This document shows, in pieces, positions 21,436 to 61,334 of a stretch of 64,000 nt of DNA. The stretch's first letter is position 1. Each line of letters starts with the position of its first letter. The notes under the pieces are model-generated. The model saw only the letters and a program-made list of their open reading frames with translations. It did no database searches and had not been told where the DNA came from. A program made the translations under genes and the position numbers. The DNA is taken from assembly GCA_000165345.1 (NCBI GenBank), contig CM000434.1, positions 640,001 to 704,000 on the forward strand, in the 5' to 3' direction.

Positions 21436-21520
21436 ATACCGGTGTTTTGACATTCAGGCGTTTCCCGCCTAAATTCGTATGTAAATTGGCCGCTAGCATG
21501 AAAAAAGCATGTAAAACAAT
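21436..21520. promoter_or_regulatory. promoter motif cluster: ATACCGGTG, E2F-like GTTTCCCGCC, GCATGTAAAA, TACATGCAAAAAAAAC
   Basis: Immediately upstream of ATG 21521. Confidence 0.45.
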
Positions 21521-23635
21521 GTGGGTACATGCAAAAAAAACATGGAAATTAAGAAAATAACACAAATGCAGCAGGATGAGATTTTTCAAGAGAATTTGGA
21601 ACTATTTTTAAGGAACTGTGAGTTGAATAGAGAGGTGGGATGGAGGGAGGTTGAAAACACGGATTTACTAGTCCGTTTGAATGATTATAAAGAGAATCAG
21701 AAGAGTTTGGAGCTTTTTATAAAGAAGCTAAAAGAAGATGAGATTGACTCATGCTTAGGAGAAATTTCGGCAAAAAGTCAGCTTAAAGAGTCTCAGAAGA
21801 TAGTGAGAAGCTTGGAAAAATACAACGAATATTTAAAGGCTATGCTACGTAAGTATATGAATGCTGGTTGCCACATAAATAAAATTTTGAATGGGGAAAA
21901 GATAACTTCGGAAGGATCATTAGAAAATGAATCTGAGGACGAATTCAGAGAGAATTTGAAGAAATGTCTGAACATACTGGAACTGCTTTCGATGGATATT
22001 GAGGAGCAAGTCAAGTATAAGGACAAGTACAAAGCATTGAAGACAGAAAACAAAGATTTAAAAGGTAGAATTGAGAAGTTGACTAGGGTTAAGCCAAGCA
22101 AAAAGGTGAGAATGGAGGTTTCTCTGACAATAATTGAACCATTTGAGTTTGATAAAGAATTAATCAAAGATACCCAAATAGTTGAGGATGTTTTTGAGCA
22201 GATAAAAAACGACCCTGTGGATAAAAGTCTGGAGGAAGAAGATATTGATAACAAAGAAATTGATATTAGTTATGAAGTTGAATGTTTGAATTACCTAATA
22301 AAACAACATAAGAAGGAAAATTTCGAGCTTAAGCAAAAAATTTTCGAGTATGAATTCAAAGATAACAAACTTGACGTGGAAGCACTAATAGAGTCAAAAC
22401 TTATGGATAAGCAAAGGGAACTAGATGAGTTGGAAGAAGAGTACTCAAATTGGGTAATTAGACTTCAGGGAGAGAATTCTGAGCTAAGAAAAGTAATTGA
22501 AATCCAAGAAAAGAAACAATCAGAATTTATTGATAACTTTACCAAAAAAAGCCAAGAGAAAGCAAAAGAAATGCAAAATATGCAGTTAAAGTTGGTAGAG
22601 AATTACGAGGAGAGGCTTAGAGAAAAGAATGAAGAGTTGAGGAAGCTAAGAGGAGAAAATATACAAGGAGAAAAGGATAGTATAGAAATAGAGTCTCTAA
22701 ACAAAATAATTAAGAGTCTCGAGGAAAAATTAGTTTCTATTTCCAGTGAGAGGCATCGTTTATCATTAGAACTTGAAAAAACAGCTAAAGATCTCAAAGA
22801 TACCGATAAGAGACTAGTTTTGAGTGAAGAAGAAATAAAGAAAAGAGAAAAAGAATTTGATTCTCTAAAAGCTGAGCAGGAAAAAATCCTTGAAGAATAT
22901 TACCATGAAAAGAAGTTGCACCAGAAGTTCGAACAAGATGCTCACTCACTAAAAAAGGAGCTCGATAATGTACTCAGTGATATGTACAAGAATCAAAAGA
23001 AAACTAGATCTGGAATTGTTGGCGATTCCATTGATAGCGACAAAATTTCTTCGATTGAAGCTGTTATTAAGCATTGCAAAGAACTTGAAGGTAAAGTTGA
23101 AGAATTAGGTTGCGAATTAGATCAACTTAAAAGTGGGAAATCTGTCACTTATACAAATTCAAGTCATAATAATGCAGAAATTGAAACTCTATTTGATCAG
23201 GTACAAAGCCTCAGGAAAGAACGTGAACAACTTAAAAAAGACATTAGGCAGAGAGATTGGGCCAAAGTCGAAGTTGAAATTCTTCATAAGCGTATTACCG
23301 AGGAAATTGATCAACTCAAGAGGGATAACACTCGACTAATGCTTGAAAATCTCAGATTAAGAGATTCTGGCGGAATCCAGATTTCTCAAAGGCAGAATTT
23401 CTTGAATTCAAACAATGAAAATATTCAAGCCAATAGTACGAGATCATCCATTTCGGGTGACAAGCAGGAATTACTAAATAAAGGCACTGAGACGAACCCT
23501 TCAAATCTTGAAGAAACTAATCATAATAATTCAAACGTTTCTGTTTCTAGAAACAGTATTCAATCTATACTTAATCTAAAGGCTCCTAGAAGGCCTAGTT
23601 TACTAGTTCAACAAAGGAACTACTCCGAAAAATAG
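21521..23635 (+). CDS. coiled-coil protein
   Basis: 704 aa of heptad-rich E/K/L sequence. The promoter carries ATACCGGTG, TTTCCCGCC and GCATGTAAAA motifs within 90 bp of the ATG. Confidence 0.5.
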   Translation: MGTCKKNMEIKKITQMQQDEIFQENLELFLRNCELNREVGWREVENTDLLVRLNDYKENQKSLELFIKKLKEDEIDSCLGEISAKSQLKESQKIVRSLEKYNEYLKAMLRKYMNAGCHINKILNGEKITSEGSLENESEDEFRENLKKCLNILELLSMDIEEQVKYKDKYKALKTENKDLKGRIEKLTRVKPSKKVRMEVSLTIIEPFEFDKELIKDTQIVEDVFEQIKNDPVDKSLEEEDIDNKEIDISYEVECLNYLIKQHKKENFELKQKIFEYEFKDNKLDVEALIESKLMDKQRELDELEEEYSNWVIRLQGENSELRKVIEIQEKKQSEFIDNFTKKSQEKAKEMQNMQLKLVENYEERLREKNEELRKLRGENIQGEKDSIEIESLNKIIKSLEEKLVSISSERHRLSLELEKTAKDLKDTDKRLVLSEEEIKKREKEFDSLKAEQEKILEEYYHEKKLHQKFEQDAHSLKKELDNVLSDMYKNQKKTRSGIVGDSIDSDKISSIEAVIKHCKELEGKVEELGCELDQLKSGKSVTYTNSSHNNAEIETLFDQVQSLRKEREQLKKDIRQRDWAKVEVEILHKRITEEIDQLKRDNTRLMLENLRLRDSGGIQISQRQNFLNSNNENIQANSTRSSISGDKQELLNKGTETNPSNLEETNHNNSNVSVSRNSIQSILNLKAPRRPSLLVQQRNYSEK

Positions 23636-24060
23636 TCAATAATGTACTGTCAAATATAGTTCATCCTCCAAAAATAAGTAATTTCAGACAAATTATGTTA
23701 AATCCCTAAATCTACATTTATCTAAGAAATATAATTAGTGAATATTAATTTATTAATTTATAATCTTTATGGTTTAGAGAATCTTGCAAATATTTCGCGC
23801 CATTTCCTTTTAATGTTTAAAAAATAAATATTTTGAAATTATTTAACTCAATTGTTCATTAAAAATCAAACTCTTACAAGAATTAAGGTAAGAAGAGCTA
23901 AACAATTATAAATATCTGTTTTAATTACTAGAAACTTTAATTGATATTTGAAAGCTCCATATCCAAAAAAGAAAAGTTGAATGCAAGATCTAAAAAAAAG
24001 CCAAAGCAAGTAAATTAGTGTTATAAACTATTCTAGGTGCTTTCTTAAAGATAGCTCTTA

Positions 24061-27511: not shown

Positions 27512-28835
27512 TTAATATAATGCTAAATACTTACTTTCTATATTTTGTTTTAAAATAATATCGGGAGGAAGTCTTTTAATTACTTTTAATATATAGTTTG
27601 TGATTCCCAGATAAGTAAACCAATGTTTGAATTTCTTAATCTGTTCAAATTTGAATTTTAATTCATCTTCACTGAGTGAGTTTAAAATATCGAATAAATC
27701 TTCAATCTGAGAGATATGGATAACTATTCCAAGTCTCTCCATTAAATTCCCATATGGAATCCAATTTACATCGTCCCAAATATATATTGGAATAGTTCCT
27801 AATTGAACTGATTCATATAGTCGAAAAGAAGTTCTTCCGAACCCTCTAGGACATAAATGAAAAGTTGAACGTTGAATTACTTGTTTGAACTGATCTCCTT
27901 GATAGTGAATAAATTGGTTTGTTACATTTTCTAAAACCTTAAAGGGGGTAATTTTATCCAACATTTCATCAGTCACATTATAATATGAAAAAGTCTCAAA
28001 TAATTTTTTCCTAACAGGGAAGTGTTTTTTAACAATAGTTGAAGATACCCAAATATCCTTTTTTGCTTTAAGTCCTTCATATTGAAGTTCGCCTTTAATT
28101 AATGGTATAGGAACTTGTTTAAATCCAGTGGTTGCTCCTCCAGCATTGAATACTATTAGATTTGACATGGACATAAATTTCAATTTAGACTTTTTAAATC
28201 CTTCTGCATCCTATATTGAGTTAGAGTTATAAAAATGATTGAATATTTGGAATAATACCAAATATTTTAAAGCTTACCTGTAGTACAGTAAAATACATTG
28301 TTTCATTTTTAAGTGAATTTAATACATCCTGAGCTTCTTTTTTCCATTCTTTCTTTAAATCAAGCTCAACCTTATTTCTATGAATTGAAGTCCAAAATAT
28401 TGGGATGTAAACTGGAGGAATAGGTTCAGATTCATTACATACTTTGATTTGTTTTGTTGAATACTGTGTAATCCAATTGCAAAAGACTCCATCTTCTATC
28501 CATGGTCCCATATATCCTGAATAGTTTGTATTTAGTCTAGGCCTTAAATTTTTGGTTAGGTTGAAAATTCGGATTTGTTCATCACTTAAACATATTTCTG
28601 TGGTATTATCTCTATTTTGTTTTGTTATATTTTGCAAGTTTATTTGATCCAAATTTCCATCAAAATTCAAATTGCAGTCCAAATAGTCAAACTGAGGATA
28701 GTTTTCCAGGAAGAAACTCCTTGGATTATTATTGCTAGGAAATTCTTGGATGTACAGGTAAATTATTATTCCACCGGTAATTATTAGCATGCATGCAAAT
28801 TCTAATAAAATTAGAAAATTGCATGACAATTTCAT
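27512..28835 (-). CDS. exostosin-like (GT47-type) type II membrane glycosyltransferase, 2 exons
   Basis: Exon 1 is 28835..28278 and begins with a signal-anchor (MKLSCNFLILLEFACMLIITGGIIIYLY). A 67-nt intron spans 28277..28211 (CAG|GTAAGC...ATATAG). Exon 2 is 28210..27512. The C-terminal FHLCPRGFGRTSFRLYESVQLGTIPIYIWDD matches the exostosin family signature. Confidence 0.6.
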
Positions 28836-29350
28836 TTTCTAATATTTTTTGGAAGAAAAAAATGATTTTTTTTTTAAGAAAAAAAAAAATTTAAATCTTT
28901 TTAGGAAAAATAATATCTCTTGCCACTGTCACTTTTATAACCTTTTCAGTATAATTTTATTCCTTTCTGAATCAATATTTAACTCAAACACTCTTTTCTT
29001 GAAGTTTAGAAATATCATCTACACTTTGTTCAATTACTCTTATTTTTCAAAAATATTATTTCTATATTCTAGAAATACTTCCAGTTCAATGCTTTAAAAT
29101 ATTTTGTTTCTTTTGAAATATTTTTTTTTAATTAAATTAATTTTTGTATTACGTGTCATATTATGATACCTTTTAGTAACGCGTACATGTAATCTTTAAA
29201 TATTATTTTTTCGAATTAATGTGGACGCCCCCAATTAATAAGGAAAAAAAAAATAAAATAAAAAAAATTTTAAAAAAATTTTAAATAAATAAAATTTAAT
29301 ATTTTAAAAATTCTACAAATTAATAGTGTTTGTGAAAGAATACTATTGAA

Positions 29351-30110
29351 ATGCAAAGCCAAGAAATGAGACCTTTGGAAACTTCATCAGAAAGATCTGG
29401 CGAGGTTGTGGGTAAGTTAAATTCCGTGCATACGTATGTGGGGTTAAAATAATTTACAAAAATCTCAGAAAATTCAACTAAAGCAATGGAAGTAAAATTA
29501 GAGGAGAACTCTGAGCCAATGACTCCGAACTATGTTGTTTTCTTAAGAGAACTATTTGTGGGAATGATTGGGGTGCATGCACTATATATTTTTGTAAATT
29601 TCATATTCAGGAACTACCCTGGTTCATTATTATCTCTATTACTGTAAGTTTAATAATATTAAGACATTTAATAATAAAATATTTATACTTTTTTTTAGTA
29701 CAATTTCTGCAATTTATACCCATTTTGACAGAAGAGTTGCGACTTATTCATTAAATACAGGTATAGAACTTCTATTGGGAATTACAATAGGATTGTCAGG
29801 TAAGTTATTTGGTTATTTTTAGTTAAAAATAGATTATTTATATTAATTTATCTTAACTTATAGTTTACTCTCCAGTCCAAGGTTTCGAAAAGTATTTTAA
29901 CGATTCAAACTTAAAGGTGAGTTAGGAAAAAGGATTTGAGTTTTTTTTTTAAAGAATTTCTAATTAAACTATTAATTTTAATCTATTTTACAGAGAGTAA
30001 CTCTTCCTCAACTTGTTTATTGTGCTTTATTTGCATTAATTTCCATTATTTTGGCACGTTTTGAGTACAAATTCAACCAGAAGAGAATAATTAATTCAAA
30101 AAGAACATGA
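29351..30110 (+). CDS. small multi-pass membrane protein (about 168 aa), 5 exons
   Basis: The exons are 29351..29411, 29469..29643, 29699..29799, 29864..29916 and 29994..30110. All four introns are GTAAGT or GTGAGT ... YAG and 55 to 77 nt long. The reading frame is continuous across all junctions. The product has hydrophobic helices (FVGMIGVHALYIFVNFIF, LLGITIGLSVY, LVYCALFALISIILA). It is not in the ORF track. Confidence 0.55.
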
Positions 30111-30220: not shown

Positions 30221-30253
30221 TTGCATGTAAAATTGCATGTAAACACCGGTATA
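30221..30253. promoter_or_regulatory. TTGCATGTAAAATTGCATGTAAACACCGGTATA promoter cluster
   Basis: 140 bp upstream of ATG 30394: two GCATGTAAA copies followed by ACCGGTAT. Confidence 0.45.
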
Positions 30254-30393: not shown

Positions 30394-31659
30394 ATGAACC
30401 TACATAATGATTTAACAAGTGGTAAAGCAGTAAAGTTCCAATTACTTGCCTTTGGATTGTCAATATTAATATTCATGGGAGGAACTTTTTATATGTTAAT
30501 AAATTCAAGCAGAAACCTTGAGAATGGAAAACAGAGAATTTTTCTCGAGTTAGAAGAGAAAGATATAACAAATCAAAAAAGCTTGGACGAATTAGATAAG
30601 CTAAATGACTCGATGCTCAGAATTTCACTTAAGTTGTCAGAAAGCAAAGATATGTTTGATACCATTGGTGCTTCAATTAATAAAATTGCCAAATATGTGG
30701 AAGCAAATGAAAAGAATATGACAGCAAAAGAATTTATTATTAAAGAAGAGTCAAAGAATGGCTTTGTTTTGGATTCAGTGTTGTTTCCATGTAAATATAG
30801 TTTTGATGGCCCGATATATATATTACTTACTACTACCCCAAAAAGAATTGATAACTTGGGTAAGTATTTGGACTTATTACATAAACAGACTTATGGGATT
30901 AAGGAAGTGATTTTATCCATTCCATACATTTTTGAAAGGACAGGAGAAGAGTATCCACCAATTCCAGGTTATTTGCAAGATAAAAATAGATTTCCTTTAC
31001 TGAGAATTTTAAGGGGAAAAGACTACGGTCCAGCAACAAAATTTCTATTACCAATAGAGATTGGGAATATTCCAGAAGATTCAGGACTGGTAATATTGGA
31101 TGATGATACAAGATATTCAAGACATCTAGTTTGCGATTATATTTATATACACGAAAAATTTCCAGAAGCAGCTTTAGGTAGAAGAGGACAGGCTTTTCAC
31201 GATAAATGCGATCCAACATATAGAACAGATAGAACTCACAGAGTAAGTCACGATCAAAAGAGTGCAAATTTTGTTATTAGAAGCGTAGATCTCCTGAGTG
31301 GAGTTGGAACATATTTTATTCAAAAAAAGTTCATTAGTAAGGATATTTTAACTCTAAAGAATAATTGTCCTACAGAAACTATCAATCATATGTTCTTTAC
31401 TGATGATATTTTGATTTCAGGTTATCTTGCATACAAGAACATTTCAAGGATTGCATTTTCAGATGAGCTTTCAATAGAAGATTTGAATCGACCATATTTG
31501 TTAGGATCTGGTCCTGGAGCTCTTTGGGATATTAATAAGGAAACCTTTCATAATGACAATAGTACAGCAGCATTTGGTTTATATTGGGGATGTAGGAACA
31601 AAGATACAATAGTAAGCAAGCATGGAGAGATACTTTGTAGGTGGAGAAACGAAGTTTGA
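30394..31659 (+). CDS. type II membrane protein, putative GT-A fold glycosyltransferase (DxD)
   Basis: 421 aa. An N-terminal TM anchor (FGLSILIFMGGTFYMLI) and a GLVILDDDTRY DxD-type motif are present. Confidence 0.5.
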   Translation: MNLHNDLTSGKAVKFQLLAFGLSILIFMGGTFYMLINSSRNLENGKQRIFLELEEKDITNQKSLDELDKLNDSMLRISLKLSESKDMFDTIGASINKIAKYVEANEKNMTAKEFIIKEESKNGFVLDSVLFPCKYSFDGPIYILLTTTPKRIDNLGKYLDLLHKQTYGIKEVILSIPYIFERTGEEYPPIPGYLQDKNRFPLLRILRGKDYGPATKFLLPIEIGNIPEDSGLVILDDDTRYSRHLVCDYIYIHEKFPEAALGRRGQAFHDKCDPTYRTDRTHRVSHDQKSANFVIRSVDLLSGVGTYFIQKKFISKDILTLKNNCPTETINHMFFTDDILISGYLAYKNISRIAFSDELSIEDLNRPYLLGSGPGALWDINKETFHNDNSTAAFGLYWGCRNKDTIVSKHGEILCRWRNEV

Positions 31660-31819: not shown

Positions 31820-34800
31820 TCATTCTTGGTCATTTAAAATCTCGATCTCAGCCTCATTCTCAGATAAGTTGGAATCTTCAACTATATCATCTTCTTCATC
31901 GAAATCAATACTATCTTCCTCGTCATCATCATCATCTTCCAAGTACATAACTTTTGATGTTGAAGCTCTAGAAGGTCTTTTTCTTTTTGACCTATTATTT
32001 TTGGATTTTGAAGGATCAACAATGCTATTTTCTATTGAGGTACTTATTGAATGATTTTCAGAATCTTTGGTTGACTTTTTGCTGGATATCTGATTTTTAT
32101 TGGAAATTTTCTTCTCAGATCTGCCTGAAATAATATCCAAGAAATTCATTATATCATTATCAAGTAGCTCCTTATTCAACATTACCGAAAGCCTAATACC
32201 TCCAGAAGAGTTGTCTTCATCGATTCCACAAAGAGACTTAGCCTGTTCCAGAATCCTTTGAATCTCGGGAGCAGAAAGTGAATTAATCACGGTTTTTCCT
32301 CCTCCTGGAGCGTTTTGAGTCATGAGGAAGTCCAAAAATAATTTAATAATTCCCTTAGTTTTAATACCTTTCTCAATGAGTTCATCCCTGGAAATGATGT
32401 CTCTAAATACCGGAATAGATATCTCTCCAAAGAGAGAAAATCGCAAGCATTCAAGAATTGACCTTGACAAATCTGAGGTGTTAGATTTAATTATTTCTTC
32501 TACTCTTCTCCACCCAAATCTAGAAGAGAATGTTGGGAATAGTTTCTTACTAAGCCTTTGAGCTCTTGCATGATTGTCTTGGATATAGGAAATAATTATA
32601 CAAGTTAATATACAAGTAAATACTCCCAAACACTCTTGGTCTTCTTTTAATAGTGCAGATTCAATGAAATTATTTGCAAAAGCAAGCTTTTCTTTGCTAG
32701 TTTCAGATCCTAAATTTGAATGAAGGCTTTCAAGATAATAATTATTAATCATAACATCTTCAATATCTGTCAGATAATTTATAAGGATCGGAGTAAAGAC
32801 CTGTAGAGTGGTTTTATACTGAGATGAAATTGATATTATTGAAAGAATACAACCAGGAGAAAATGGATGACTAAGAAAATCACTGATTTTGTTTTTATAA
32901 ATTCCCAAAGTCTCAGGAGTTGTGACAAAAGCCTCATCTTTTAGATTATCCAGTGGCTCAAAGATTCTACAACTTGGATAAAGCAAGTAATATGGCTTAT
33001 CTTTATCAGAAAAGTTTAAAATACCATTAAATCCTTCAATCAAAGAAGATGAAAGGCTTGAAATTTTAAAATCTTCATTCACATTTTTACTACGGTTTGT
33101 ACAGGTCCAGTAAATTAATTCCTTTGTAATTAATGCCAATTCAGAATCTGAGAGAGCCCACTTTAACTCACAATCTGCATCTGGGTCTCGTAAGTTGTTT
33201 TCAATTGTTCCCTGAAGTCCCGTAATTACAAGAAAAGAACATAAAGAAAGGAGGCTAATTAAATTGAGACATTGGTTATCTGTTGATTTATGTTTGATAT
33301 TATTTCTCAGAGACTCAAGCAATATGCTGCTCAACTTATGTCTAACTGCCTTATATATTTCAATTGTGGATTCTTTAAGATTACTTAAAGTAAGGTAATT
33401 ATTTTCACTTACTTGGTCATCCTCATTGCCTATTTCGTTATTTTCAATAGAGTCAACATCTACTCCTTGCAAAAGATCTTGAACAAGGTGGGCATAACCT
33501 GTAGTAAGCATATCGAGAGTAAGACTATAAAGTTGAGTACATTGGTGTGAGAGAATTTGGTCAAGATTCAGTTGAATAATTCTTTCAGTTCTTTCTAGAA
33601 CCTCAAAAAGAATTTCAAAGGTTATTGGAACACCTGATCCCTGTTCTGGGGACATTTCCGAAGATTTCAATGTTGATAAACTATCTCTATATTGGCTTGA
33701 CAAATATATATTACTGGTAGTAAGGTATTTCACAACTCCAAAAGCTTTTCTAAAGTTACACATCGTATTTAATGCAGAATTTTGTGCATTTTCACTCTTT
33801 TTTGAAGATTTCTTCGATTTCTTTGAATTTGACGTGTTTTCTGCTACATTCGAGTACAAAAGCCCATCAGTATTTGCCAGGAACTCTCTTCCCGACGCAA
33901 AGAAAGTGTCCAAGAGCTTTTTATTAAGGGATTCAACATCAGATTGAATATCTATTAAAGAATTTTCATTAAATTGAAGATTTTTACAATCTAAGCTGGC
34001 AATTGGAGAAAAAGTCATACAAATTCCATCAATTACTCTTGAGTCGCTATGGCTTTGAATAAGAGCAATGAGCTTTTTAATAGGGAAATGTCTCATTCCA
34101 GATGGGATAAAATTTGAATTTTCCTTATCTTGTATTATTTTGCAATACAAACTTATACATGTTGAGAATGTTGAAAGTAATATTGTAAGATAATCAGTAT
34201 TCTGTTCATGAAGAAGAATAAGAGGTTCCATATATTCAAGAATCACAGAAATTGCTACAAATGCTCTGAATCTAGTTAATATAGATTCAGCCTTTGAATA
34301 TAATAAGCTTGAAGTACCTTCAGGTTCTATGAATAACAAATCTTCAATTCGAGAAACATTTGCATGTAAAACTAATAACAAAACTTTCCTCATTTCCTCA
34401 CCTAAAGGCTCAAGTTGCGAGCTTGACGAGCATTCTGTTGCTAGAAGCATTTCTACAAGGAATTTTGAATCTCTAACACAAGGAGCTTTGGACCAAAAAG
34501 CATTAACACATCTATGAGTAAGGACTACCAAATCTCTTCCAAATTCATGAATAAACTCCAGGAAAGTTTGAAGATCTGATCTGATTCTGCCTGGTTCAAG
34601 AGTTTTAAGTTCTTCCAAATTTATCAAACTTTTAACCTTTTTGTTTTCAATTTGGTGACATGCAAGCTCAATGAGTTCTCGTGCCTCAATATTTTCATGG
34701 GAAATTCCACCTTCAAAAAGAGCAGAGTCTACAAACTCAGCAAGAAGGGAACTAATCGCCGGTGATGATGGTCCAAGCCAAAGTAAATCTACAATCTCAT

Positions 34801-44847: not shown

Positions 44848-45588
44848 CTATTCCTTCTTTCTACGTTTTTCCTCCTCTTCTTGTTGTTTTCTGATTAGAA
44901 TGACTACAATCTTAGTAAAGAGGTTGACAGCATCAAGGTAAAGCTGAATAGAGTGAAGAAGGAAATCTCTTTCACCATATGCAATAGCTTCAAGAGTCTT
45001 TTGGGTATCGTAGTAAATATAAAATGAGTAAACCATAACAAAAGCATAGGATAAAAGTGAATCAACAAATTTGGATCTTGTGAAGATATTAAAGAATGAT
45101 ACAAGTCCAAGATATGCAATAGTTGTGAAAATAAAAGAAGTAGTATATAGAGAAAGTCTCTTCTTAGTGAATAAAACTCCAAAAGATAGCGAAATAAAGA
45201 TAATACATGTGGTTGCAAGAGCTGTGGGAATGATAACAGGATTAACAAAGTTACTAAATAGAATCAAAGGTCCAAGTCCATTACCAATTACAAAGCATAG
45301 TAACAAATAGGCTGCTAAACGTTTAATGGAAATAGAGCTCTTATTAGATGATGATGCTGTCAAATAGAATGTGACACCAATTCCAGCCAAAAGACCAACA
45401 AATGAGTTGATTCTTAACATTCCATTAATAAATGCAGTCACCCCAAATACTGTCATAAATGAACCAGCAATAATAGAGGAGTACATTTTTAACAAGTGGG
45501 TTTGCTGAATTGAAGTCAGATCTGATGAATTAAAGAAGTTTCCACTGAACTGGGACTTTCTTGAATTAGTTGCAAAGAATGATTCCAT
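44848..45588 (-). CDS. Bax inhibitor-1 (TMBIM6 family)
   Basis: 246 aa with 7 predicted TM helices. GNGLGPLILF, FDTQ...AIAYGERDFLLHSIQLYLDAVNLF and the basic KRRKKE C-terminus match BI-1. Confidence 0.8.
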   Translation of the reverse strand: MESFFATNSRKSQFSGNFFNSSDLTSIQQTHLLKMYSSIIAGSFMTVFGVTAFINGMLRINSFVGLLAGIGVTFYLTASSSNKSSISIKRLAAYLLLCFVIGNGLGPLILFSNFVNPVIIPTALATTCIIFISLSFGVLFTKKRLSLYTTSFIFTTIAYLGLVSFFNIFTRSKFVDSLLSYAFVMVYSFYIYYDTQKTLEAIAYGERDFLLHSIQLYLDAVNLFTKIVVILIRKQQEEEEKRRKKE

Positions 45589-46143
45589 TTTTTTTTAATT
45601 TTAATTGAATCTTAGTCAATTCGAGTTGTGTGTTTGAATTTACAAAATCTAATAGAGGTTGTTCGCTATAATAAGGATAAACGACTGTATGCCTTTGTTC
45701 CTTCGCAAATTTTCTTTCTGTTTACAATTTAAAGGCAATAATTAAATAAAAATCCAACTTTCTTTGTCAGATCTTTCTTTCTTTTTGTTTTACCCTGAAT
45801 CCTGGCATTTCTTAATTTTGTTTAATACCGGTATGTGAGCGTCTTGTCTACTGACTTTTAAAAATATTTATTAATGGCAGGAAAGAAATGGAATTTTGTT
45901 ATTGGGCGGGAATTGTTGGAAGTGGTGGGAAAATTGGTGTGTTAGGTATGAATTACGTGTTTGAGCGGCAATTTCATGCAAGTTAGGGTTGGATGGGGGG
46001 ACTAGAGGGAAGAGGGTGCGAATATGCAGTGGTTGTAGCAATACAGTGCATGCATGTGTTTACAATGAACATGTAGGGAAGAAGTGAAAAGAGAGGAGAG
46101 AAAAGGAGAGGAAAACGAGAGTAAAGAGATGAGGGGAGTGAGA

Positions 46144-46188
<45 letters not shown>

Positions 46189-46258
46189 GAAAAATCATTA
46201 TTAAGGATAAAAAGCTAATATAGCAGTTATTTTCAAGAGTTCAAGTATTGATGAACAA

Positions 46259-47389
46259 TTACTTGGTGACTTTGAATGACTGAACAAGCTGTAAAAGCTC
46301 TTTGGCCCTAGGGTCAGTATTAAAATGGTCACGAATTGGTTGTAGCATAAGGTTCAAAGCGTCAGAAAGACCTTTTTTCAAATCACCAGGGTGAAGATCG
46401 CCACTAAGATAAGCCTTATGGAAATCTTCTTTATTGGTAAAGGTGATATCACCACCATACTCTTCTTTTCTAGAAACATGGAAATGACCGAATTTGGGGA
46501 ATACTAGAGTATTAATATATTCAATGCATGGATTTCCTTCAATAATGCCTGGAGGACAGAAAGCCTTTTTAATTTTTTTAACAACAGCTTCAGGAGTATC
46601 TTCAACAAATATTGCAGAAGAAGTGTCAGATTTTGACATTTTTTCTTGTCCTTCAAGTAACCCAGGAAGCATCTTATGGGAAAGGATTACAGGTTTATGT
46701 TTGATTCCAGCTGCATCACAGTATTCTCTAGCAAGCATGTTAACTTTTCTTTGATCCATACCTAACTGGCAAATATCTGCCTTGAGTTGGAATATATCAG
46801 CACATTGCATGCATGGATAAAATACTGAAGCACACGGTTGTTCATCATTTTCTTGTCTTCCCATAATTTGGCAACATCTTTTAATTCTAGTAATATTAAA
46901 CTTTCTAGAAATATCAAAAACTCTTAACCAATACTCATTAGAATCTTCCCCATTAATAAAATCAGATGCCCAAACAAATCTTACATTTGTCATATCCATT
47001 CCTGCAGCCTTCCATATGTGAACGAAATATTCACCAACAATCTTAATTTTTTCAAGATCACCACCCATCTTATTATTGAGCAGAGCAAACCAATCTGCTA
47101 CGTAGAATACAAAAACGCATCCGCATTCAGTTAACTTATTTACATTAATAGTCTTTAATATACATTGAGCAATATGCATTCTTCCTGAAGGTTCAAATCC
47201 ATCATAACAAATTGGATGTTCTTTTCTCTTTAATAATTCCAACAATTCTGCTTCTTGAATACATTCTTCACCAACTGATAAACATAACTTATGTCTTTCC
47301 TCCAAAGTTAACTTTGATCTTTTCAATGGCTCTTCACTTCCTTTCAAAATGTATTTGGGGATAGTTTCAGTACAACTATTAGATGACAT
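46259..47389 (-). CDS. tyrosyl-tRNA synthetase (class I, archaeal/eukaryotic type)
   Basis: 376 aa. CYDGFEPSGRMHIAQ corresponds to the HIGH region, a KMSKS motif is present, and AFCPPGIIEGNP resembles the TyrRS AYCP..EGNP segment. Confidence 0.85.
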   Translation of the reverse strand: MSSNSCTETIPKYILKGSEEPLKRSKLTLEERHKLCLSVGEECIQEAELLELLKRKEHPICYDGFEPSGRMHIAQCILKTINVNKLTECGCVFVFYVADWFALLNNKMGGDLEKIKIVGEYFVHIWKAAGMDMTNVRFVWASDFINGEDSNEYWLRVFDISRKFNITRIKRCCQIMGRQENDEQPCASVFYPCMQCADIFQLKADICQLGMDQRKVNMLAREYCDAAGIKHKPVILSHKMLPGLLEGQEKMSKSDTSSAIFVEDTPEAVVKKIKKAFCPPGIIEGNPCIEYINTLVFPKFGHFHVSRKEEYGGDITFTNKEDFHKAYLSGDLHPGDLKKGLSDALNLMLQPIRDHFNTDPRAKELLQLVQSFKVTK

Positions 47390-52125: not shown

Positions 52126-54366
52126 ATGACAAGTAATAATAACGTAGTACCGGTTAGTGCCTCCCTTTATGTGGGTGATTTGGATGCAGATGTGACTGAG
52201 ACAATGTTATATGAAATATTTAATAGTGTTGCAGTTGTATCATCAGTACGTATTTGTAGAGACGCTCTTACAAGAAGAAGCTTGGGTTATGCTTATGTCA
52301 ATTACAATAGTGTAGCGGATGCTGAGAGAGCTCTAGATACTCTTAATTTCACATGCATCCGTGGCCGTCCATGCAGAATTATGTGGTGCTTACGCGACCC
52401 AGCATCCAGAAGAAACAACGATGGAAATGTATTTGTAAAGAATTTGGATAAGTCGATTGATAATAAGACATTATTCGATACTTTTAGTCTATTTGGAAAT
52501 ATTATGTCATGTAAAATCGCTACCGATGTTGAGGGTAAGTCTTTGGGATATGGTTTTATCCATTTCGAACATGCAGACAGTGCTAAAGAAGCTATTTCTA
52601 GGCTAAATGGGGCTGTATTGGGAGATCGCCCAATTTATGTCGGAAAGTTCCAGAAGAAGGCTGAACGCTTTTCTGAAAAAGATAAGACATTCACTAATGT
52701 CTATGTTAAACATATCCCTAAGAGTTGGACTGAAGATCTTCTATACAAGATATTTGGAGTATATGGTAAAATTAGCTCATTGGTCCTGCAATCCGACTCT
52801 AAAGGTAGACCTTTTGGTTTTGTGAACTTTGAAAACCCCGATTCCGCTAAGGCTGCAGTTGCTGCCTTACACAATGCTTTAGTTACTCCAGTAGGGGTTG
52901 AGTTGGACTCTACAGCAGAGACTCCAGTTGATAACGAGGCTGGAGCTGATTCTGAGACATCATCCAAGCAAGAATCTGGAGAAGCTTCTAATAAAAAACA
53001 AACTGCATCTGGCGAAGCATCAAAGGATTCTTCAGGAACATCAAACGAGGAATCTGCACAGAATGAGGATGGATCAGCTGACAAGAATGTTTCAGCTGAT
53101 GTACAACCAAATAGACTATATGTTTCTAGAGCACAAAAAAAGAATGAACGTCAGGTGGTCTTGAAGTCTCAACACGAAGCTGTAAAGGAGAGCCACCAAA
53201 GATACCAAGGTGTAAATCTTTATGTAAAGAATTTGGCAGATTCAATCAATGAGGAGGACCTCCGTTCTATGTTTGAACCATTTGGAACAGTATCTTCCGT
53301 AAGCATTAAGACTGATGAATCAGGTGTCTCAAGAGGATTTGGGTTTGTTTCATTCCTCTCCCCTGATGAAGCTACAAAGGCTATTACTGAGATGCACCTT
53401 AAGCTTGTGCGCGGAAAGCCACTGTATGTAGGCCTTCACGAACGTAAAGAACAAAGAGCACTACGTCTTCAGCAGCGTATTAGAGGGGGTGCAGTCCCTC
53501 CAGTTTTAAGACCCGGAGCAATTCCCCCAGGCCCTCCAGGAGTACATGGAGCTCCCATGCAATTTGGTGTACCACCACAAATGTACTTTATTCCTGGAAA
53601 TCCAAATGTGGCAGCAACTGCTATGCCACATGGAAGAGCGATGGTTACAGGAGGTTTCCCTAATCAAAATGCAATGAATAATCCATGGAGGCCAAATCCA
53701 ACAAGAATGCCATACACTGCAGGAGGTGTGCCTCCTCAAATGACAGGCGGTCCTCAAATGACAGCCTATAATGGCAACGTTATCCAACAAAATGGAGTAT
53801 CTCCAAACGGAGCTGCTAATGCTACCGGGTCTGTCCAAAATGGAGTCACCGGTAATGCAGTTACAGGAGTTCAAGGTGCTCAAAATAACAGAACTGGAGG
53901 AAATAACCAGAGAATTCATAATAGACATGTTCAAGGTAATGGGCAAGGAGGAAGGCCGGGCTCCCATGGTCATCAAGTTCAGCAAATGCAAAAGCAAGGA
54001 TTCAAATTTCCACAAAACGTTAAGGGATCTGAAATGCAGCGCGTGGATATGATGCAAAATAGACAAATGGATTCATCAAACGGCGCACTTGTTCAGAATC
54101 CATTAATCCCTCAACCAGATGTTCCTCTAACTGCTGCTACCTTGGCAGCTGCATCCCCTAGCATGCAGAAACAATTACTTGGAGAGAGACTTTTCCCAAT
54201 TATTGCCCAATTCCAACCAGAATTGGCAGGAAAGATCACCGGGATGATGCTTGAAATGGATAACAATGAATTATTAGAACTTTTGAGTTCTGATATTGAA
54301 ATCAAAAACAAGGTAGATGAGGCCATGGTCGTACTTGAACGTGCTCAGCAACAAATTAGCACGTAA
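52126..54366 (+). CDS. PABP: poly(A)-binding protein (four RRMs plus PABC/MLLE domain)
   Basis: 746 aa. The first RRM starts LYVGDLDADVTETMLYEIF and three more RRMs follow. The C-terminal LGERLFPIIAQFQPELAGKITGMMLEMDNNELLELL is a canonical PABC domain. Confidence 0.9.
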   Translation: MTSNNNVVPVSASLYVGDLDADVTETMLYEIFNSVAVVSSVRICRDALTRRSLGYAYVNYNSVADAERALDTLNFTCIRGRPCRIMWCLRDPASRRNNDGNVFVKNLDKSIDNKTLFDTFSLFGNIMSCKIATDVEGKSLGYGFIHFEHADSAKEAISRLNGAVLGDRPIYVGKFQKKAERFSEKDKTFTNVYVKHIPKSWTEDLLYKIFGVYGKISSLVLQSDSKGRPFGFVNFENPDSAKAAVAALHNALVTPVGVELDSTAETPVDNEAGADSETSSKQESGEASNKKQTASGEASKDSSGTSNEESAQNEDGSADKNVSADVQPNRLYVSRAQKKNERQVVLKSQHEAVKESHQRYQGVNLYVKNLADSINEEDLRSMFEPFGTVSSVSIKTDESGVSRGFGFVSFLSPDEATKAITEMHLKLVRGKPLYVGLHERKEQRALRLQQRIRGGAVPPVLRPGAIPPGPPGVHGAPMQFGVPPQMYFIPGNPNVAATAMPHGRAMVTGGFPNQNAMNNPWRPNPTRMPYTAGGVPPQMTGGPQMTAYNGNVIQQNGVSPNGAANATGSVQNGVTGNAVTGVQGAQNNRTGGNNQRIHNRHVQGNGQGGRPGSHGHQVQQMQKQGFKFPQNVKGSEMQRVDMMQNRQMDSSNGALVQNPLIPQPDVPLTAATLAAASPSMQKQLLGERLFPIIAQFQPELAGKITGMMLEMDNNELLELLSSDIEIKNKVDEAMVVLERAQQQIST

Positions 54367-55286
54367 ATCTAGAGATTCTGAGTCTTTTTTTTTGCTACTA
54401 GAAGTGTTATAACACTAGATTTTTTTTTATTTCTACGCTTGTTTTAACTTTTTCCATTGCTTTTCTAAATTAGTGTAATACAAATCTTGATTGCTTCTAG
54501 AATCAATGTGTAAATTTCTCTCTTCACTCCTTTATATGCGTTTCGAATGGTTTTTACCACTATTGTTATTAATGCAACTACTACTACTACTGATCCCGGT
54601 TCATCAAGAGTTTGAAACAATGTCTTTAATCATTATCGTCACATTAAATAAACATTACTTTATATATAGAGAGCGCGCACATGCATGTAAAATTTCAAGT
54701 GCATGCAAATTGTCAAAATCTGTGAAAGTTAACTAATAAGAAAGAAAACATATCCTAATTAAAATTTACTTAATCTAGATACACAGCCTAATCCAATTCA
54801 CTGCAACTTTTTAATTAAACAAATACACTCATTAATTTTTTTTTTTTTTTTTTTGCTACTAAAAATAAAACCATTATTTTTCTTAAATTCATCATTACTA
54901 ATGTGTCCACATAAATTGACAAATGCAATTATAAAAATTACATGATGTTGGCGCCCAACACGTAATCTAAATTAAAAAAATGGGGAAATATAAGTAATTA
55001 ATGCTAAATAGATAGAGGGGAAATTATATGGGGAAAAGTCAGGACAAAATTTACATGGAAAATTTGAGAAAAAATATTTGAAAAATAAACGCTTTTAAGT
55101 AATTGATTTTTTTTTTAAAGTGTTTATTAAAATCAAGAGTATTATATTCATGCTAACTAAGGAAATATATTGTATAAATAGTACCAAAGAAGTGAATAAT
55201 ATATTTGAATTGGCAAGATAAATAAAAAGATATTTATCCAAAAAAAAAAATTAAAGTGGAAGAGTGAGAGAAAACTTGAGGAAAAA

Positions 55287-56730: not shown

Positions 56731-56794
56731 ATTGCATGTATACCGGTATTGCAATATTGTCATGCTAATAGGCGGCAAAGTTGCCCCACGTAAT
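56731..56794. promoter_or_regulatory. promoter cluster: GCATGTATACCGGTATTGCAAT ... AGGCGGCAAAG
   Basis: The palindromic ATACCGGTAT at 56740..56749 lies 138 bp upstream of ATG 56887, with an E2F-like GGCGGCAAAG at 56771. Confidence 0.45.
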
Positions 56795-56886: not shown

Positions 56887-59800
56887 ATGAATAGAATTCG
56901 GAATGCGGTAAGATTGAGGAGGAAAGAGTCCCAAGAGACTACAGGAAAGAAGAGTGAAGGAGAGATAAATTTTCAATCGGAGAATAGTAAGGGCTTAAAT
57001 ATTGTGGGGAAGGAAAATTCGGGTGAAATTGGAATTCCTGAAATTTTGAGTTATTTTCCTGACTTATACGTCGATAGTTCGAACGGATTTTCCGCTAATG
57101 GAGGAGGAGTTGGACAAATGATTTGTGGAACAATATCATCCTTTTTCGAGGATACTTGGAACAGAGCAATGGGTGAAATGAAACAGGTCAAATCAAGAAA
57201 TATTTGTAATTTATCATCTGATTTAAGTCTTGGTATTCATTTGAAAAGAGAATGGCATCGTTTGTGGCTTGTAAGAAGCTTTTTGGCATTCGCATGGGAG
57301 AGTTATCTTGAAGACCTGATGATTGAAAATGATAAGTTTCCTAAAGAATATTTGAATCTCCCTAGTTATGGCACTAATTTGGAGGGAATTGGTAAAATTT
57401 CCCTTGGTGAGATTCTTTGTATTGTAAGTTGCAGCAAATTGACTTATTCTGAAAAGAGTACTATTTCAATCCCATTTTCTACAATTCAAGGCAAGATGAT
57501 AATTAAAAAATCACTAAGTTTTAATTATAATCTTCATTGGAAGACCCCTACTCCTAATACAGTTGCTAAATTTCGTGTTCTTCAGGATCAGAAAAAGCTG
57601 CCAAAGACAAATACTAGTAATGTTGAAGGTGGAGATTCTGTATTTATGTCATTGGATATTGATAATCCCCAGTTTCTTTGGAAAAGTTCTTTTTCTAATC
57701 AAATTCCAAAAGAGTTTGAAGATCTTCAAACACTTGCATCTTCCGTAAGAGTTCTAAGAAAGGATGAGACAGCAAAGTTTACTATTGATGGTAAGAAAAG
57801 TATTGTAATAAAATTACTTAATTGGTATCGTGAGACACAAGATATAATTACTTATGAAAACAAAAATGTAAATTGTAAATATTTTATTGAACAAGAAGAC
57901 TTTTACTTTGACAATGATTTAAACAATTCTCAAATTCAAGGAAACGTGACAAGTGTTGAGTATTCCATTACTTCCGATGATAATAGAAAAAGGAAGCTCT
58001 TCACTGGTTTGACATATATATCTAATGGAAGTTATTTCTCTCCAATGTTAGGAACGGTAATGAGAGGAAATTCTAAAGCCGTTATTTACATTACCAAAGA
58101 GTTAGCAAATCTTGAATTGGGAATATTAAAAAAACATTCTGATAACTCCAAGTTTTCAAATTGTCTAAGAAGTATTGTGACTGGAATGGACTCTGGAAAA
58201 AGATATTTTCTTCATTTAGAGATTCCTTCAATAGAAAAAGAGCTACAAGATCTTCAAATAAAAGAAAAAAATAAGACTTTAATGTTTAAACATGTTATCC
58301 AGAATAAAAAGCAATTTGAAAGCAGAATACAACTACTACAAGACCTAAAAGCTTTTGGGCATTTAGTACTTTCCAAATTTTCCATTGGAAATGGAGAGTC
58401 TGCAATAATAGAGAATGTATATATTAGGGAAATTGGAAACGATCCTATTCTATTGGAAACTCTTAGAGTCAAGTTAAATCAACATCTCCTTGAGAATAAC
58501 TTATTTGAAGTTCCATTTGTATTTTTTGAAATTGAAAATCATTCTAAGAGTAAATATCAGGCTTTTATAGTTTGCCCTTGTATCAGAAATTATAATGAAC
58601 TACTCTTTTATTCTCACTTTAGGTGGCTTAAAGGGGAATATATAAAAAAGAAAAGGTTTGAAATCAGTCCAAATGAAGCTTATTCAAGACATATTTTTGG
58701 AGATTTGAGACAAACCAAGGAACAGAATCATCAAAGGAATGACCAAATTCAAATGGGAATGTCTCATTACAATAAAGGAGTAACTCTACTAGTAGAGCTT
58801 GGAAGATTCAACTTCCATCTAGAAGAAGGAATTTTGGAAGATCTGAGAGATAATAGAAGTCTATATTCTTTAGAATGGGAATTTGAATGGTTAAATAATA
58901 ATTCTGAAGGAGGATTATCCTTATTCTTCCATGTTTTAAGAACTTCCTTTTTTATATTATATGAATCTTATGGAGGAGCAATTTCTGATCTAAATCAGGT
59001 TCTACTTGATACACTTAACTTTACTAATATTCAAAAATGGAAATTATCTTTAAGATTTGAGAAAATGATGGAGTTTTTGATCTTAGAAACTAAAAAAAGA
59101 GCTGGATCTATCTATTTTAATATTATTGGATTATTATCCCAGTTATTAATGGAAATTCACTTAGAAGGAAAGACCAGTAAAAGATTAGTTGAGGAAATAT
59201 TGAACAAAGTAAGAGAAAGTATGAAACATGCATCAGTTCAGATTATTTTGTTGGATTACTTGGTAACTTGGATACTAATTAATGTTTCAGTATTTAAAGT
59301 ATGTACAAAGGATTTATCTTTGAAACTTGGGAGTATTTTCCAGAATCTCCTAGTTTTTCATAGAATTTGTAGAAAATTTCTTCAGGATAGAAAAGATCAA
59401 GTTCAAATTCAATTGGAAGTTTTATGTGAAAGAATGACTTTTACAGGAATTATTAATAGTATTTTACCTGTTACGACATCAAATATGAAAGGAGAGAATG
59501 GAAAGGAGGCATTTTTCAAATACATCATGAGGTTTTATATTTTTGAGAAGTTGTCTCAGTTTTTGGTAAATCCAATGGATGCAGAGACTCAATATAATAA
59601 TGAAAAGATAAGTTACTTTAATCTTCTCAGAGAAGAACCAACACTTGATATATTATCTTTGGGAGATAATAGAAGTGGGGTACTAGGACTAGGATCTCCC
59701 AGAATACAACTTTTTTCCGATTTGGAATGTAATCTTTACCGAGGGTTATCAAAAATCAATGAAACTTTCTTGCTAGATAGAGTTGAGGAAGAGAAAACAA

Positions 59801-61221
59801 AAATTTTACAAGATGTTATGATATCAGATGAATCATTCTTAGTAAAGGGAATTAGTTCAATAGCTTATGGGACTGATCATATTGTCATTCTTGGAAAAGA
59901 GGGAGATATTTTGATTTGGGGTAGTAACTCTTCAGGCCAATGTTGTATTGAAAAGAAGCCTATTAGCAAAAAGATTAATGCTGAATTCAATAATGAAAAA
60001 GATTCAAAAGAATTATTAAAAAGAATTGAAGATTATGAGAATACAATTTTTTACCCAACTCGGATATCTTGTTTCTCAAACATTTGTGATAAAATAACAA
60101 TTAGCAAGATTGATTGTGGAGCTTTTTTCACTCTTGCTTTGGATCATAATGGAGATTTATTTTCATGGGGTCAAGGTAGAGATGGATCTCTTGGGACAGG
60201 AAGCTACGAGGACTCATTTGTCCCACAGAAAATTAAACTTGAAAACAAAGTTAAATCATTTTCTGCAGGAATGTTCCACTGTGGTGCTATTGACGAGAAG
60301 AATCAACTTTATGTTTGGGGTTCAAATGAATTTGGACAACTTGGGACAAAACTATATATGGATAATAAGAATTTAAATACCCCTTTTAAGATTTTAGTAA
60401 AGTTTTCAAGAAGTAGCGTGACAAGTTCAAAAATAACTTTAGTAGCTTTAGACAAACAAGATTCAGGAAATACAGAAGAAATAGTTGAATGGAAAGGAGT
60501 GTCTTTTGGAGAAGCTCATTCAATTGCTTTGGATACAAATGGACTTGTTTGGGTATGGGGCCAAAACAATCTCAAACAATTAACGGGAATTCCAGAAATA
60601 CTTGAGACAGAAATAATGATTTCTAATAATATAATTTCTTCAGATTATTATAGAAAACTATGTTCTCAAGTCATTTTCCCAACCCCCTTAGTATCTACAG
60701 ACAAAGTAGTGGTTTTTGCTTCCAGGAAGATTAACATGATCTTCTCAGGAAGTACTACTTGCTGTGCTATTGATGAACAAGGAAAACCTTGGTTATGGGG
60801 ATTAAGTTTTTCAGGAATAGATCATCATAACGTTAATTCAATATTTTCAAGGAAGAATACTTCTGGTTCTACCGAACATAAAAATCTTATTGAATTTGAG
60901 TTTCCTGTTCGGGTTTTCAGAAATATTACTCCAGATTTTGATTCAATTAGAACAGTAAGATTTGGAAAGGGAAATAACAATATTTCAATGGTAAGCAGAC
61001 TAGGAAGATGCTACCTCTGGCTTGAAAACAAAGATTTAGTTACTGATCAAATGAAGTATTTGAATAATCATAACTGTTTTATTCTGGAAGACTTACAAAG
61101 TATTAGTTTCAGAAATAACCATTTAAAAAATTCTCGTCATCATTCAATTCTTGACGTAGCTTTACTTTCAGATTCAATTATCTTTATAACCAAGAAAACT
61201 AACAAAGTCAAAAACAATTAA
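56887..61221 (+). CDS. large protein with a C-terminal RCC1-repeat propeller
   Basis: 1444 aa. The C-terminal 500 aa carry repeated RCC1-like signatures (GDNRSGVLGLGS, WGSNSSGQCC, WGQGRDGSLGTGS, WGSNEFGQLGT). The N-terminal 900 aa match no family I recognise. Confidence 0.65.
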   Translation: MNRIRNAVRLRRKESQETTGKKSEGEINFQSENSKGLNIVGKENSGEIGIPEILSYFPDLYVDSSNGFSANGGGVGQMICGTISSFFEDTWNRAMGEMKQVKSRNICNLSSDLSLGIHLKREWHRLWLVRSFLAFAWESYLEDLMIENDKFPKEYLNLPSYGTNLEGIGKISLGEILCIVSCSKLTYSEKSTISIPFSTIQGKMIIKKSLSFNYNLHWKTPTPNTVAKFRVLQDQKKLPKTNTSNVEGGDSVFMSLDIDNPQFLWKSSFSNQIPKEFEDLQTLASSVRVLRKDETAKFTIDGKKSIVIKLLNWYRETQDIITYENKNVNCKYFIEQEDFYFDNDLNNSQIQGNVTSVEYSITSDDNRKRKLFTGLTYISNGSYFSPMLGTVMRGNSKAVIYITKELANLELGILKKHSDNSKFSNCLRSIVTGMDSGKRYFLHLEIPSIEKELQDLQIKEKNKTLMFKHVIQNKKQFESRIQLLQDLKAFGHLVLSKFSIGNGESAIIENVYIREIGNDPILLETLRVKLNQHLLENNLFEVPFVFFEIENHSKSKYQAFIVCPCIRNYNELLFYSHFRWLKGEYIKKKRFEISPNEAYSRHIFGDLRQTKEQNHQRNDQIQMGMSHYNKGVTLLVELGRFNFHLEEGILEDLRDNRSLYSLEWEFEWLNNNSEGGLSLFFHVLRTSFFILYESYGGAISDLNQVLLDTLNFTNIQKWKLSLRFEKMMEFLILETKKRAGSIYFNIIGLLSQLLMEIHLEGKTSKRLVEEILNKVRESMKHASVQIILLDYLVTWILINVSVFKVCTKDLSLKLGSIFQNLLVFHRICRKFLQDRKDQVQIQLEVLCERMTFTGIINSILPVTTSNMKGENGKEAFFKYIMRFYIFEKLSQFLVNPMDAETQYNNEKISYFNLLREEPTLDILSLGDNRSGVLGLGSPRIQLFSDLECNLYRGLSKINETFLLDRVEEEKTKILQDVMISDESFLVKGISSIAYGTDHIVILGKEGDILIWGSNSSGQCCIEKKPISKKINAEFNNEKDSKELLKRIEDYENTIFYPTRISCFSNICDKITISKIDCGAFFTLALDHNGDLFSWGQGRDGSLGTGSYEDSFVPQKIKLENKVKSFSAGMFHCGAIDEKNQLYVWGSNEFGQLGTKLYMDNKNLNTPFKILVKFSRSSVTSSKITLVALDKQDSGNTEEIVEWKGVSFGEAHSIALDTNGLVWVWGQNNLKQLTGIPEILETEIMISNNIISSDYYRKLCSQVIFPTPLVSTDKVVVFASRKINMIFSGSTTCCAIDEQGKPWLWGLSFSGIDHHNVNSIFSRKNTSGSTEHKNLIEFEFPVRVFRNITPDFDSIRTVRFGKGNNNISMVSRLGRCYLWLENKDLVTDQMKYLNNHNCFILEDLQSISFRNNHLKNSRHHSILDVALLSDSIIFITKKTNKVKNN

Positions 61222-61274
61222 TCTTTATTTTTCAGTGACTACGAAAAAAAAATCCCTTTCCATTCACAAACACT

Positions 61275-61334
61275 ATACCGGCATTCCAATAGCTACATGC
61301 ATTATTCTATAAAAAATTGGCGGGCTTTTGAGGA
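61275..61334. promoter_or_regulatory. promoter cluster: ATACCGGCAT, TACATGCATT, TTGGCGGGC
   Basis: 100 to 150 bp upstream of ATG 61430. Confidence 0.4.

Follow-up and report, generated by a model that had tools for sequence, protein, structure and literature searches.

An ACCGGT-centred motif as a candidate promoter element of Cryptosporidium parvum

The 8-mer ACCGGTAT, which recurs in a 64,000-nucleotide stretch of Cryptosporidium parvum chromosome 6 (hereafter the window; GCA_000165345.1, contig CM000434.1, positions 640,001 to 704,000), is probably a conserved cis-regulatory promoter element, and we predict that it is the site of a sequence-specific protein within composite AP2_1/E2F promoters. 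The fullest form of the element is the palindrome ATACCGGTAT. It lies 100-240 bp upstream of start codons, in either orientation and in compact composite promoters, where GCATGYA, the known AP2_1 motif of ApiAP2 proteins, is usually found beside it and E2F-like GGCGG(G/C) boxes often follow 19-40 bp downstream. Its enrichment, its conservation above the intergenic background and its use in both orientations mark it as a real, non-random feature of promoter regions. The recurrence before unrelated genes and the preservation amid diverged non-coding DNA suggest that it is probably a docking site for an uncatalogued regulator. A preliminary description of this DNA had proposed a perfect palindrome at a fixed distance from start codons, set apart from E2F-type promoters and marking a shared expression programme; what survives of it is a real conserved element that looks like a protein-binding site, whereas the four additions are not supported in that form.

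Recurrence of the element in the window

The window extends from about cgd6_2760 to cgd6_3050 and has a G+C content of ~32%. Its genes are mostly without introns, and ~20% of it is intergenic (13.0 kb over 29 spacers). The five sequences described earlier are all present, the second starting at 30243 and not at 30244, and all of them fall between genes:

21436-21445: ATACCGGTGT, in a divergent spacer, 106 bp upstream of the ATG at 21542 (cgd6_2860)
30243-30252: ACACCGGTAT, 151 bp upstream of the ATG at 30394
45825-45834: ATACCGGTAT, a perfect palindrome, 237 bp upstream of the minus-strand ATG of BI-1 at 45588 (cgd6_2960)
56740-56749: ATACCGGTAT, a perfect palindrome, 147 bp upstream of the ATG at 56887 (cgd6_3030)
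61275-61284: ATACCGGCAT, a weak variant (ACCGGCAT), 155 bp upstream of the ATG at 61430 (cgd6_3040)

The membership of the 61275 site in the family is doubtful. Across the window ACCGGTAT has six matches at four loci where 0.32 would be expected, and it is found in four spacers against 0.10 expected from a first-order Markov model of intergenic DNA (p ~4e-6). The motif had been chosen after the sequence was seen, and this was countered by ranking all intergenic 8-mers (~7,500) against the same background. E2F variants came first (GGCGCCAA, 8 spacers), followed by CACGTAAT (5 spacers), ACCGGTAT and then TGCATGTA, which leaves ACCGGTAT as the third motif family among the intergenic 8-mers of the window. 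All five loci are intergenic, though intergenic DNA makes up only 20% of the sequence.

Allowing one mismatch, ATACCGGTAT has 8 matches compared with 0.59 expected from dinucleotide shuffles. The three that go beyond the list are a coding ATACCGGAAT at 32407 and ACAGGT variants at 29755 and 41136; the latter two lack the CCGG core and were not counted as members, and the one at 29755 falls within the bounds of a small intron-containing gene. The ACCGGT core is also found inside coding sequence at 28773, 52149 and 53848. A restriction to intergenic DNA, as first claimed, is therefore true of the five listed sites but not of the one-mismatch family or of the core. A possible sixth site, CACCGGTAAT beside GCATGCATGC at 28773, was rejected: it lies in an exostosin-like coding sequence, and its ACCGGT is not kept in chipmunk genotype I, C. 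ubiquitum or C. canis. Two minus-strand open reading frames of the window (27512-28174 and 28227-28835) together make up this exostosin/GT47-like gene as its exons; in other species the gene is annotated with 402-417 residues, and the start codon varies among them.

The distances to the start codons are looser than the fixed spacing first proposed. Those of 151, 147, 155 and 237 bp were correct, but the 77 bp given for the first site is in fact 106 bp, because position 21521 is the GTG of a bacterial-style open reading frame call and the first in-frame ATG is at 21542. The values in the window are thus 106, 147, 151, 155 and 237 bp, three of the five being near 150 bp in a small sample, and a further site outside the window adds 336 bp. 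At the first of these genes, ATGTGGGTACATGCAAAAA (21519-21537), which closely precedes the ATG at 21542, does not vary among five species; public annotations of the gene differ in the start codon and give a product of either 697 or 689 residues.

Anatomy, conservation and neighbouring boxes

In every instance of the element, orthologous or lineage-specific, CCGGTAT is present in one orientation and nearly always preceded by A, and the other flank varies (AT, AC, AA, GT, CT). Since CCGGTAT is constant while the far flank changes, the constrained unit is, as far as the alignments tell, the 7-8-mer (A)CCGGTAT around the symmetric ACCGGT core. The perfect 10-bp palindrome that had been ascribed to the element as a whole occurs at only two of the five sites (45825 and 56740); the C. 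felis counterpart of the 30243 site is also a full palindrome. Dimeric binding is plausible and not more than that, because two palindromes in five are not clearly above what AT-rich flanks would give.

A tentative possibility is that one domain, for example of AP2 type, reads (A)CCGGTAT as an asymmetric monomer site and that the 10-bp palindrome is incidental. This would fit with the constancy of CCGGTAT beside a variable flank, with the count of two perfect palindromes in five against a chance of ~12% from AT-rich flanks (P ~0.1), and with the likeness of TACCGGCAT/TACCGGTAT to the plant element TACCGACAT. The ACCGGT core is itself symmetric, however, and both of its halves are conserved, evolution at the 30243 site of C. 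felis went toward the perfect palindrome, similar motifs of oomycetes are reported as full palindromes, and no published AP2 binding motif of C. parvum is alike.

For the comparison with other species, syntenic loci were located with two anchor proteins. The window from 42 to 64 kb was compared with C. meleagridis, C. canis, C. felis, C. ryanae and C. serpentis, and that from 16 to 37 kb with chipmunk genotype I, C. ubiquitum, C. canis and C. felis. Intergenic DNA of C. canis is 48-57% identical to that of C. parvum, and that of C. felis 38-42%. Against this divergence, ACCGGTAT/ATACCGGT is perfectly kept in C. canis at three of four loci, compared with a background of 6.1% for intergenic 8-mers (P ~9e-4), and four of the five sites are phylogenetic footprints. 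At 30243 the block TTGCATGTAAA-N-ACCGGTAT is invariant in five species, C. felis having ATACCGGTAT, and the motif is among only 16 perfectly conserved intergenic runs of at least 8 bp in 3.6 kb. At 21436, C. parvum shares ATATACCGGTGTT without change with chipmunk genotype I, C. ubiquitum and C. canis, and in C. felis ACGGGT stands at the same distance of 19 nt from an E2F box. The ACCGGTATTGCAA of the 56740 site is kept in C. meleagridis and C. canis and has the counterparts GCGGTATTGCA in C. felis, TACCGATA in C. serpentis and only ATACC in C. ryanae; the site is unchanged in four Logan assemblies. The 45825 site is identical in C. meleagridis, reads CCGGTATG.G.GCGTCTTGTCT in C. canis and is reduced to ATACCG in C. 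felis, while C. serpentis carries AACCGGTAC in the same spacer. Only C. meleagridis retains ACCGGCAT, the variant at 61275; C. canis and C. felis lack it. When hexamers conserved from C. parvum to C. canis were listed blind to the motif, CCGGTA/ATACCG appeared in 4 spacers, next to CATGCA (6 spacers), TGGCGC (5) and CACGTA (5).

The preference for non-coding DNA extends beyond C. parvum. In nine loci from seven other species, ACCGGTAT/ATACCGGT was found 14 times in non-coding and once in coding sequence. Some of these sites are lineage-specific: C. canis has GGCGCCAAACCGGTATTGCAAG within an intron of a ferredoxin gene (L008, 9020-9050), which repeats the ACCGGTATTGCAA of the RCC1 promoter, abuts the E2F box GGCGCCAA and has no counterpart in C. 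parvum or C. meleagridis; C. ryanae has a site 480 bp upstream of PABP, and C. serpentis one 35 bp upstream of a SPIN90-like gene. In C. parvum itself, 18.6 kb of flanking DNA (~83 kb examined in all with the window) contained one ATACCGGT, which is intergenic (L017, 17233) and lies 336 bp upstream of an ATG. It is part of the same module, preceded by GCATGTA, ATTACGTG and TACATGCA and followed after 24 nt by TTTCCCGCC. As possible sources of the conserved blocks, hidden coding sequence is excluded by stop codons and frame-breaking indels, and a structured or tRNA-like RNA was dismissed after Rfam and ARAGORN gave no match in the window.

The boxes that accompany the element in the window are the following:

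30223-30229 and 30235-30241, plus strand: two GCATGTA boxes that immediately precede the 30243 site, with TTGCATGTAAA unchanged across five species
56734-56740, plus strand: GCATGTA, sharing 1 bp with the 56740 site; C. canis has ACATGCA, and C. meleagridis has lost the box
61294-61300, minus strand: TACATGC, which reads GCATGTA on that strand; 9 bp downstream of the 61275 site
21462-21469: E2F-like TTCCCGCC, 19 nt downstream of the ACCGGT at 21438; invariant in five species
56771-56778: E2F-like GGCGGCAA, 23 nt downstream of the ACCGGT at 56742
61319-61324: E2F-like GGCGGG, downstream of the 61275 site
45905-45912: E2F-like GGCGGGAA, in the spacer upstream of BI-1, distal to the ACCGGT relative to BI-1
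56787-56794: CACGTAAT box, another conserved motif that recurs; two more motif-bearing spacers have it, at 21226 and 45952

A GCATGYA box lies within 30 bp at three of the five sites, and not at four as first stated, which still compares with a background of 6.9% (P = 0.003). The gaps at these three are 1, -1 and 9 bp, and at the other two sites 61 and 212 bp. Taking the motif-bearing spacers as a whole, GCATGYA is present in all five, E2F-like GGCGG(G/C) in four and CACGTAAT in three. The motif had been set apart from the E2F-type promoters of the region; with E2F-like boxes in four of its five spacers, it accompanies E2F rather than replacing it. At three sites the E2F-like box is 19-40 bp downstream of the motif. 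The spacing between ACCGGT and the E2F-like TCCCGCC (21438-21469) is exactly 19 nt in five species while the bases between diverge, and the 23-nt spacing at 56742 is shared with C. meleagridis and C. canis. At 45825 the E2F-like box is ~70 nt away on the gene-distal side, and both C. meleagridis and C. canis retain its GGGCGGG.

The CACGTAAT box is an observation in its own right. CACGTAAT/ATTACGTG occurs in 5 spacers against 0.17 expected (21226-21233, 29148-29155, 45952-45959, 54959-54966 and 56787-56794; also at about 17190 of L017), which makes it more enriched in the window than ACCGGTAT, and it shares a spacer with ACCGGTAT in three of five cases and again at the out-of-sample site. It is conserved, as ATTACGTGTCA in five species, as CACGTAATCTAA in four and as CCCCACGTAAT in species as far away as C. 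ryanae. The ACGT at its core is suggestive of a bZIP-like site; it is found neither in the text of Oberstaller 2013 or those of its supplements that were examined, nor in the motif table of a 2025 review. One copy opens an 85-bp block (29148-29233) upstream of the small intron-containing gene (about 29330-30080), where promoter conservation is unusually strong, with the runs ATTACGTGTCA, AACGCGTACATGTAATCT (which contains TACATGTA) and ATTAATGTGGACGCCCCCA perfect in five species. In the spacer between BI-1 and TyrRS, a long (GA)n microsatellite lies within a purine-rich tract at about 46140-46200 and is absent from the orthologous spacer of C. meleagridis.

Candidate roles and readers

That the recurrence is accidental, with the motif riding in promoter cores that are conserved for other reasons and not being a binding site, we consider unlikely. 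Such an account can draw on the small sample of five loci, on a motif picked after the sequence was seen, and on the position of the sites in blocks with conserved GCATGYA, E2F and CACGTAAT boxes. Four points weigh against a functional element more generally. A strict Bonferroni correction over 32,896 canonical 8-mers leaves the enrichment in the window borderline (~0.1), so that independent evidence is needed. Conservation fades in distant species (C. ryanae, C. serpentis and partly C. felis). Part of the conservation could be hitch-hiking, because the motif sites lie within promoter blocks that are conserved as a whole. Lastly, expression-cluster catalogues and a MEME analysis of data from the assay for transposase-accessible chromatin with sequencing (ATAC-seq) were searched and had no ACCGGT-like motif, where a frequent element might have surfaced. 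On the other side, enrichment, conservation at three of four loci against a background of 6%, and a restriction to non-coding DNA that includes newly gained sites agree with each other, and this agreement counts against chance. Moreover, the bases between the motif and its neighbouring boxes diverge while the motif does not, and the out-of-sample site came with the same module.

The genes concerned, as identified from product names and Table S2 of Oberstaller 2013, are:

21542-23635: cgd6_2860, coiled-coil protein
44848-45588, minus strand, ATG at 45588: cgd6_2960, BI-1
46259-47389: cgd6_2970, TyrRS
56887-61221: cgd6_3030, RCC1-domain protein
61430-62734: cgd6_3040, RPAP3_C-domain protein

The gene with its ATG at 30394 encodes a protein of 421 residues whose C. 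hominis copy is called "glycosyl transferase 64-like" in a UniRef entry. The PABP gene of the window (52126-54366) has an exact copy with identical neighbours in BX526834.1 and CP029785.1. Among the 200 expression clusters of Oberstaller 2013 (Table S2), cgd6_2860 is in cluster 102, cgd6_2960 in 82, cgd6_3030 in 14 and cgd6_3040 in 77. The shared expression programme that had been suggested is not supported by four genes in four different clusters. This is weak negative evidence: the comparison is one of cluster membership, not of profiles, for four genes and leaves out cgd6_2920, and the clusters are fine-grained.

A general factor could, instead of driving stage-specific expression, use the motif as a boundary or roadblock between packed tandem genes, setting a nucleosome-free region and stopping read-through in the way that Reb1 functions. 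Five of the six C. parvum sites are in head-to-tail spacers, 54-425 bp past the upstream stop codon, and the associated genes are functionally unrelated and spread over four expression clusters. Tandem spacers are, however, the commonest promoter-bearing type in the window, so the five in six are not significant, and the 21436 site has divergent genes on either side and no 3' end close by; we regard this role as quite improbable. An RNA-level element in the 5' untranslated region that controls translation or stability of the downstream mRNA is very improbable: at 106-237 bp upstream of the ATGs some copies could be transcribed, but the motif occurs in both orientations relative to the downstream gene, a perfect 10-nt palindrome cannot make a hairpin with a loop, and Rfam had no match in the window. 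The orientation is best seen in the 13-mer AACACCGGTATAT, which is common to 21436 (as reverse complement) and 30243 and is oppositely oriented with respect to the downstream gene. The use of both orientations points to recognition of double-stranded DNA rather than RNA.

If the element is a protein-binding site in composite promoters, as we favour, the putative factor would recognise the symmetric ACCGGT core, perhaps in dimeric form, and no fewer than one complete GGTAT half-site would be required. Its contribution would be to the activity or architecture of promoters and would concern only some genes, ~1 in 7 in the window. The earlier assignment to an AP2 or Myb factor was a guess. The Myb core YAACNG (CNGTTR) is absent from the conserved ACCGGTAT, and the only CGGTTA-type sequence, TACCGGTTAG at 52148, is coding sequence. 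The 2025 review tabulates microarray motifs for the AP2 proteins of C. parvum, the primary ones being AP2_1-like, AP2_2-like/GTGTGT, G-box, GCGTGCA and AAAA, and Oberstaller 2014 gives GGTGCACC for cgd4_3820; none of them is ACCGGT-like. Five C. parvum AP2 proteins gave no microarray motif (2025 review), so the reader may still be an AP2 protein of that kind, as it may be a Myb, a C2H2 or some other protein. E2F/DP would call for a [C/G]GCGC[G/C] or GGCGGG core, and that of the motif is CCGG.

The literature examined, which did not include Bankier et al. 2003 (an oligomer analysis of the same chromosome), offers no ready name for the element. The six families of upstream motifs in the 2025 review (AP2_1, AP2_2, G-box, E2F, GAGA and CAAT-box) do not include an ACCGGT-like motif. 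Neither CCGG, ACCG nor CGGT is present in the main texts of Oberstaller 2013, Oberstaller 2014, Mullapudi 2007 and Campbell 2010, in a 2019 ApiAP2 review, in a 2025 ATAC-seq preprint or in the 2025 regulation review, and neither CCGGT nor ACCGG in the supplements of Oberstaller 2013 that were examined. A full-text search for ACCGGT together with Cryptosporidium or ApiAP2 returned primers only. Published work on Cryptosporidium also reports that AP2 sites do not cover many of the over-represented upstream motifs and that open chromatin is dominated by E2F. Transcriptional control in this genus is poorly understood, and a conserved 8-10-mer of high information content would extend a short list of motifs. 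It would also be a practical handle, as bait for the DNA-affinity purification of a new factor and as a site for CRISPR mutagenesis of promoters. If the motif turned out to be rare or inert genome-wide, it would be only a local curiosity.

Comparison with known promoter elements

One comparable element is the AP2_1 motif, TGCATGCA or GCATGCA, which is bound in C. parvum by ApiAP2 domains such as that of cgd2_3490. Both are short palindromic promoter elements, over-represented in the non-coding DNA of the same chromosome and conserved, and AP2_1 adjoins three of the five sites; the ACCGGTAT motif differs in having no TGCAT. With the E2F/DP motif ([A/T][C/G]GCGC[G/C][A/T]), the dominant promoter motif of C. 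parvum, it shares the character of a GC-rich island near starts in AT-rich spacers. It has a CCGG core, however, instead of GCGC or GGCGGG, and is much rarer, being found in 4-5 spacers of the window against well over 10 with E2F boxes.

Outside the Apicomplexa, the Grainyhead/CP2 site AACCGGTT has the same symmetric ACCGGT core, which is read by a dimer and shows that a dimeric factor can read exactly such a core. The flanks differ (T-ACCGGT-A in Cryptosporidium, A-ACCGGT-T in the Grainyhead site), and the CP2 family is described from opisthokonts. The plant dehydration-responsive element/C-repeat (DRE/CRT) TACCGACAT, bound by AP2/ERF domains of the DREB type, shares TACCG...AT, is one base away from the 61275 variant TACCGGCAT and illustrates that an AP2 fold can read a CCG core. 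Unlike the palindrome it is asymmetric and bound by a monomer, and ApiAP2 domains are highly diverged from plant DREBs. The yeast Reb1 site TTACCCGG also resembles the motif; all three resemblances serve as leads only.

An exact match comes from oomycetes. In Phytophthora infestans, the computed promoter motif M94 is TACCGGTA, listed beside M93, TACATGTA (PMC3597505), and in Plasmopara halstedii the motif streme-5, ATACCGGTAT, is found upstream of 206 genes (PMC10031896); motif-9 of Seidl et al. is GTACCGGTA, as cited in PMC10031896. All were found computationally in upstream DNA, and the sequence is the same, including the 10-bp palindrome of 45825 and 56740. The match to TACCGGTA/ATACCGGTAT is perfect at these two sites and has one mismatch at 21436, 30243 and 61275. 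The sister palindrome TACATGTA resembles the GCATGTA/TACATG boxes beside the Cryptosporidium sites. A general TAC-NN-GTA family that would join TACCGGTA and TACATGTA was considered and dropped, as the 10 classes of central dinucleotide had no pattern of enrichment. There are differences: oomycetes belong to the Stramenopila and Cryptosporidium to the Alveolata, and the oomycete motif is tied to stage-induced genes (germinated cyst and hyphae; RxLR effectors). The exact match nevertheless raises the question of shared versus convergent regulators. Convergence on a short palindrome is quite possible, and common ancestry of the binding factors is pure speculation. In the boldest view, which we hold to be rather unlikely, ACCGGTAT/ATACCGGTAT would join E2F and AP2_1 as the third major promoter code in Cryptosporidium, with an unrecognised reader other than the AP2 domains of known motif. 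Its identity or mode of recognition might be shared with oomycetes, and it would then be an ancient regulator of the stramenopile-alveolate-rhizarian (SAR) clade that acts as a general factor of promoter architecture in very compact genomes.

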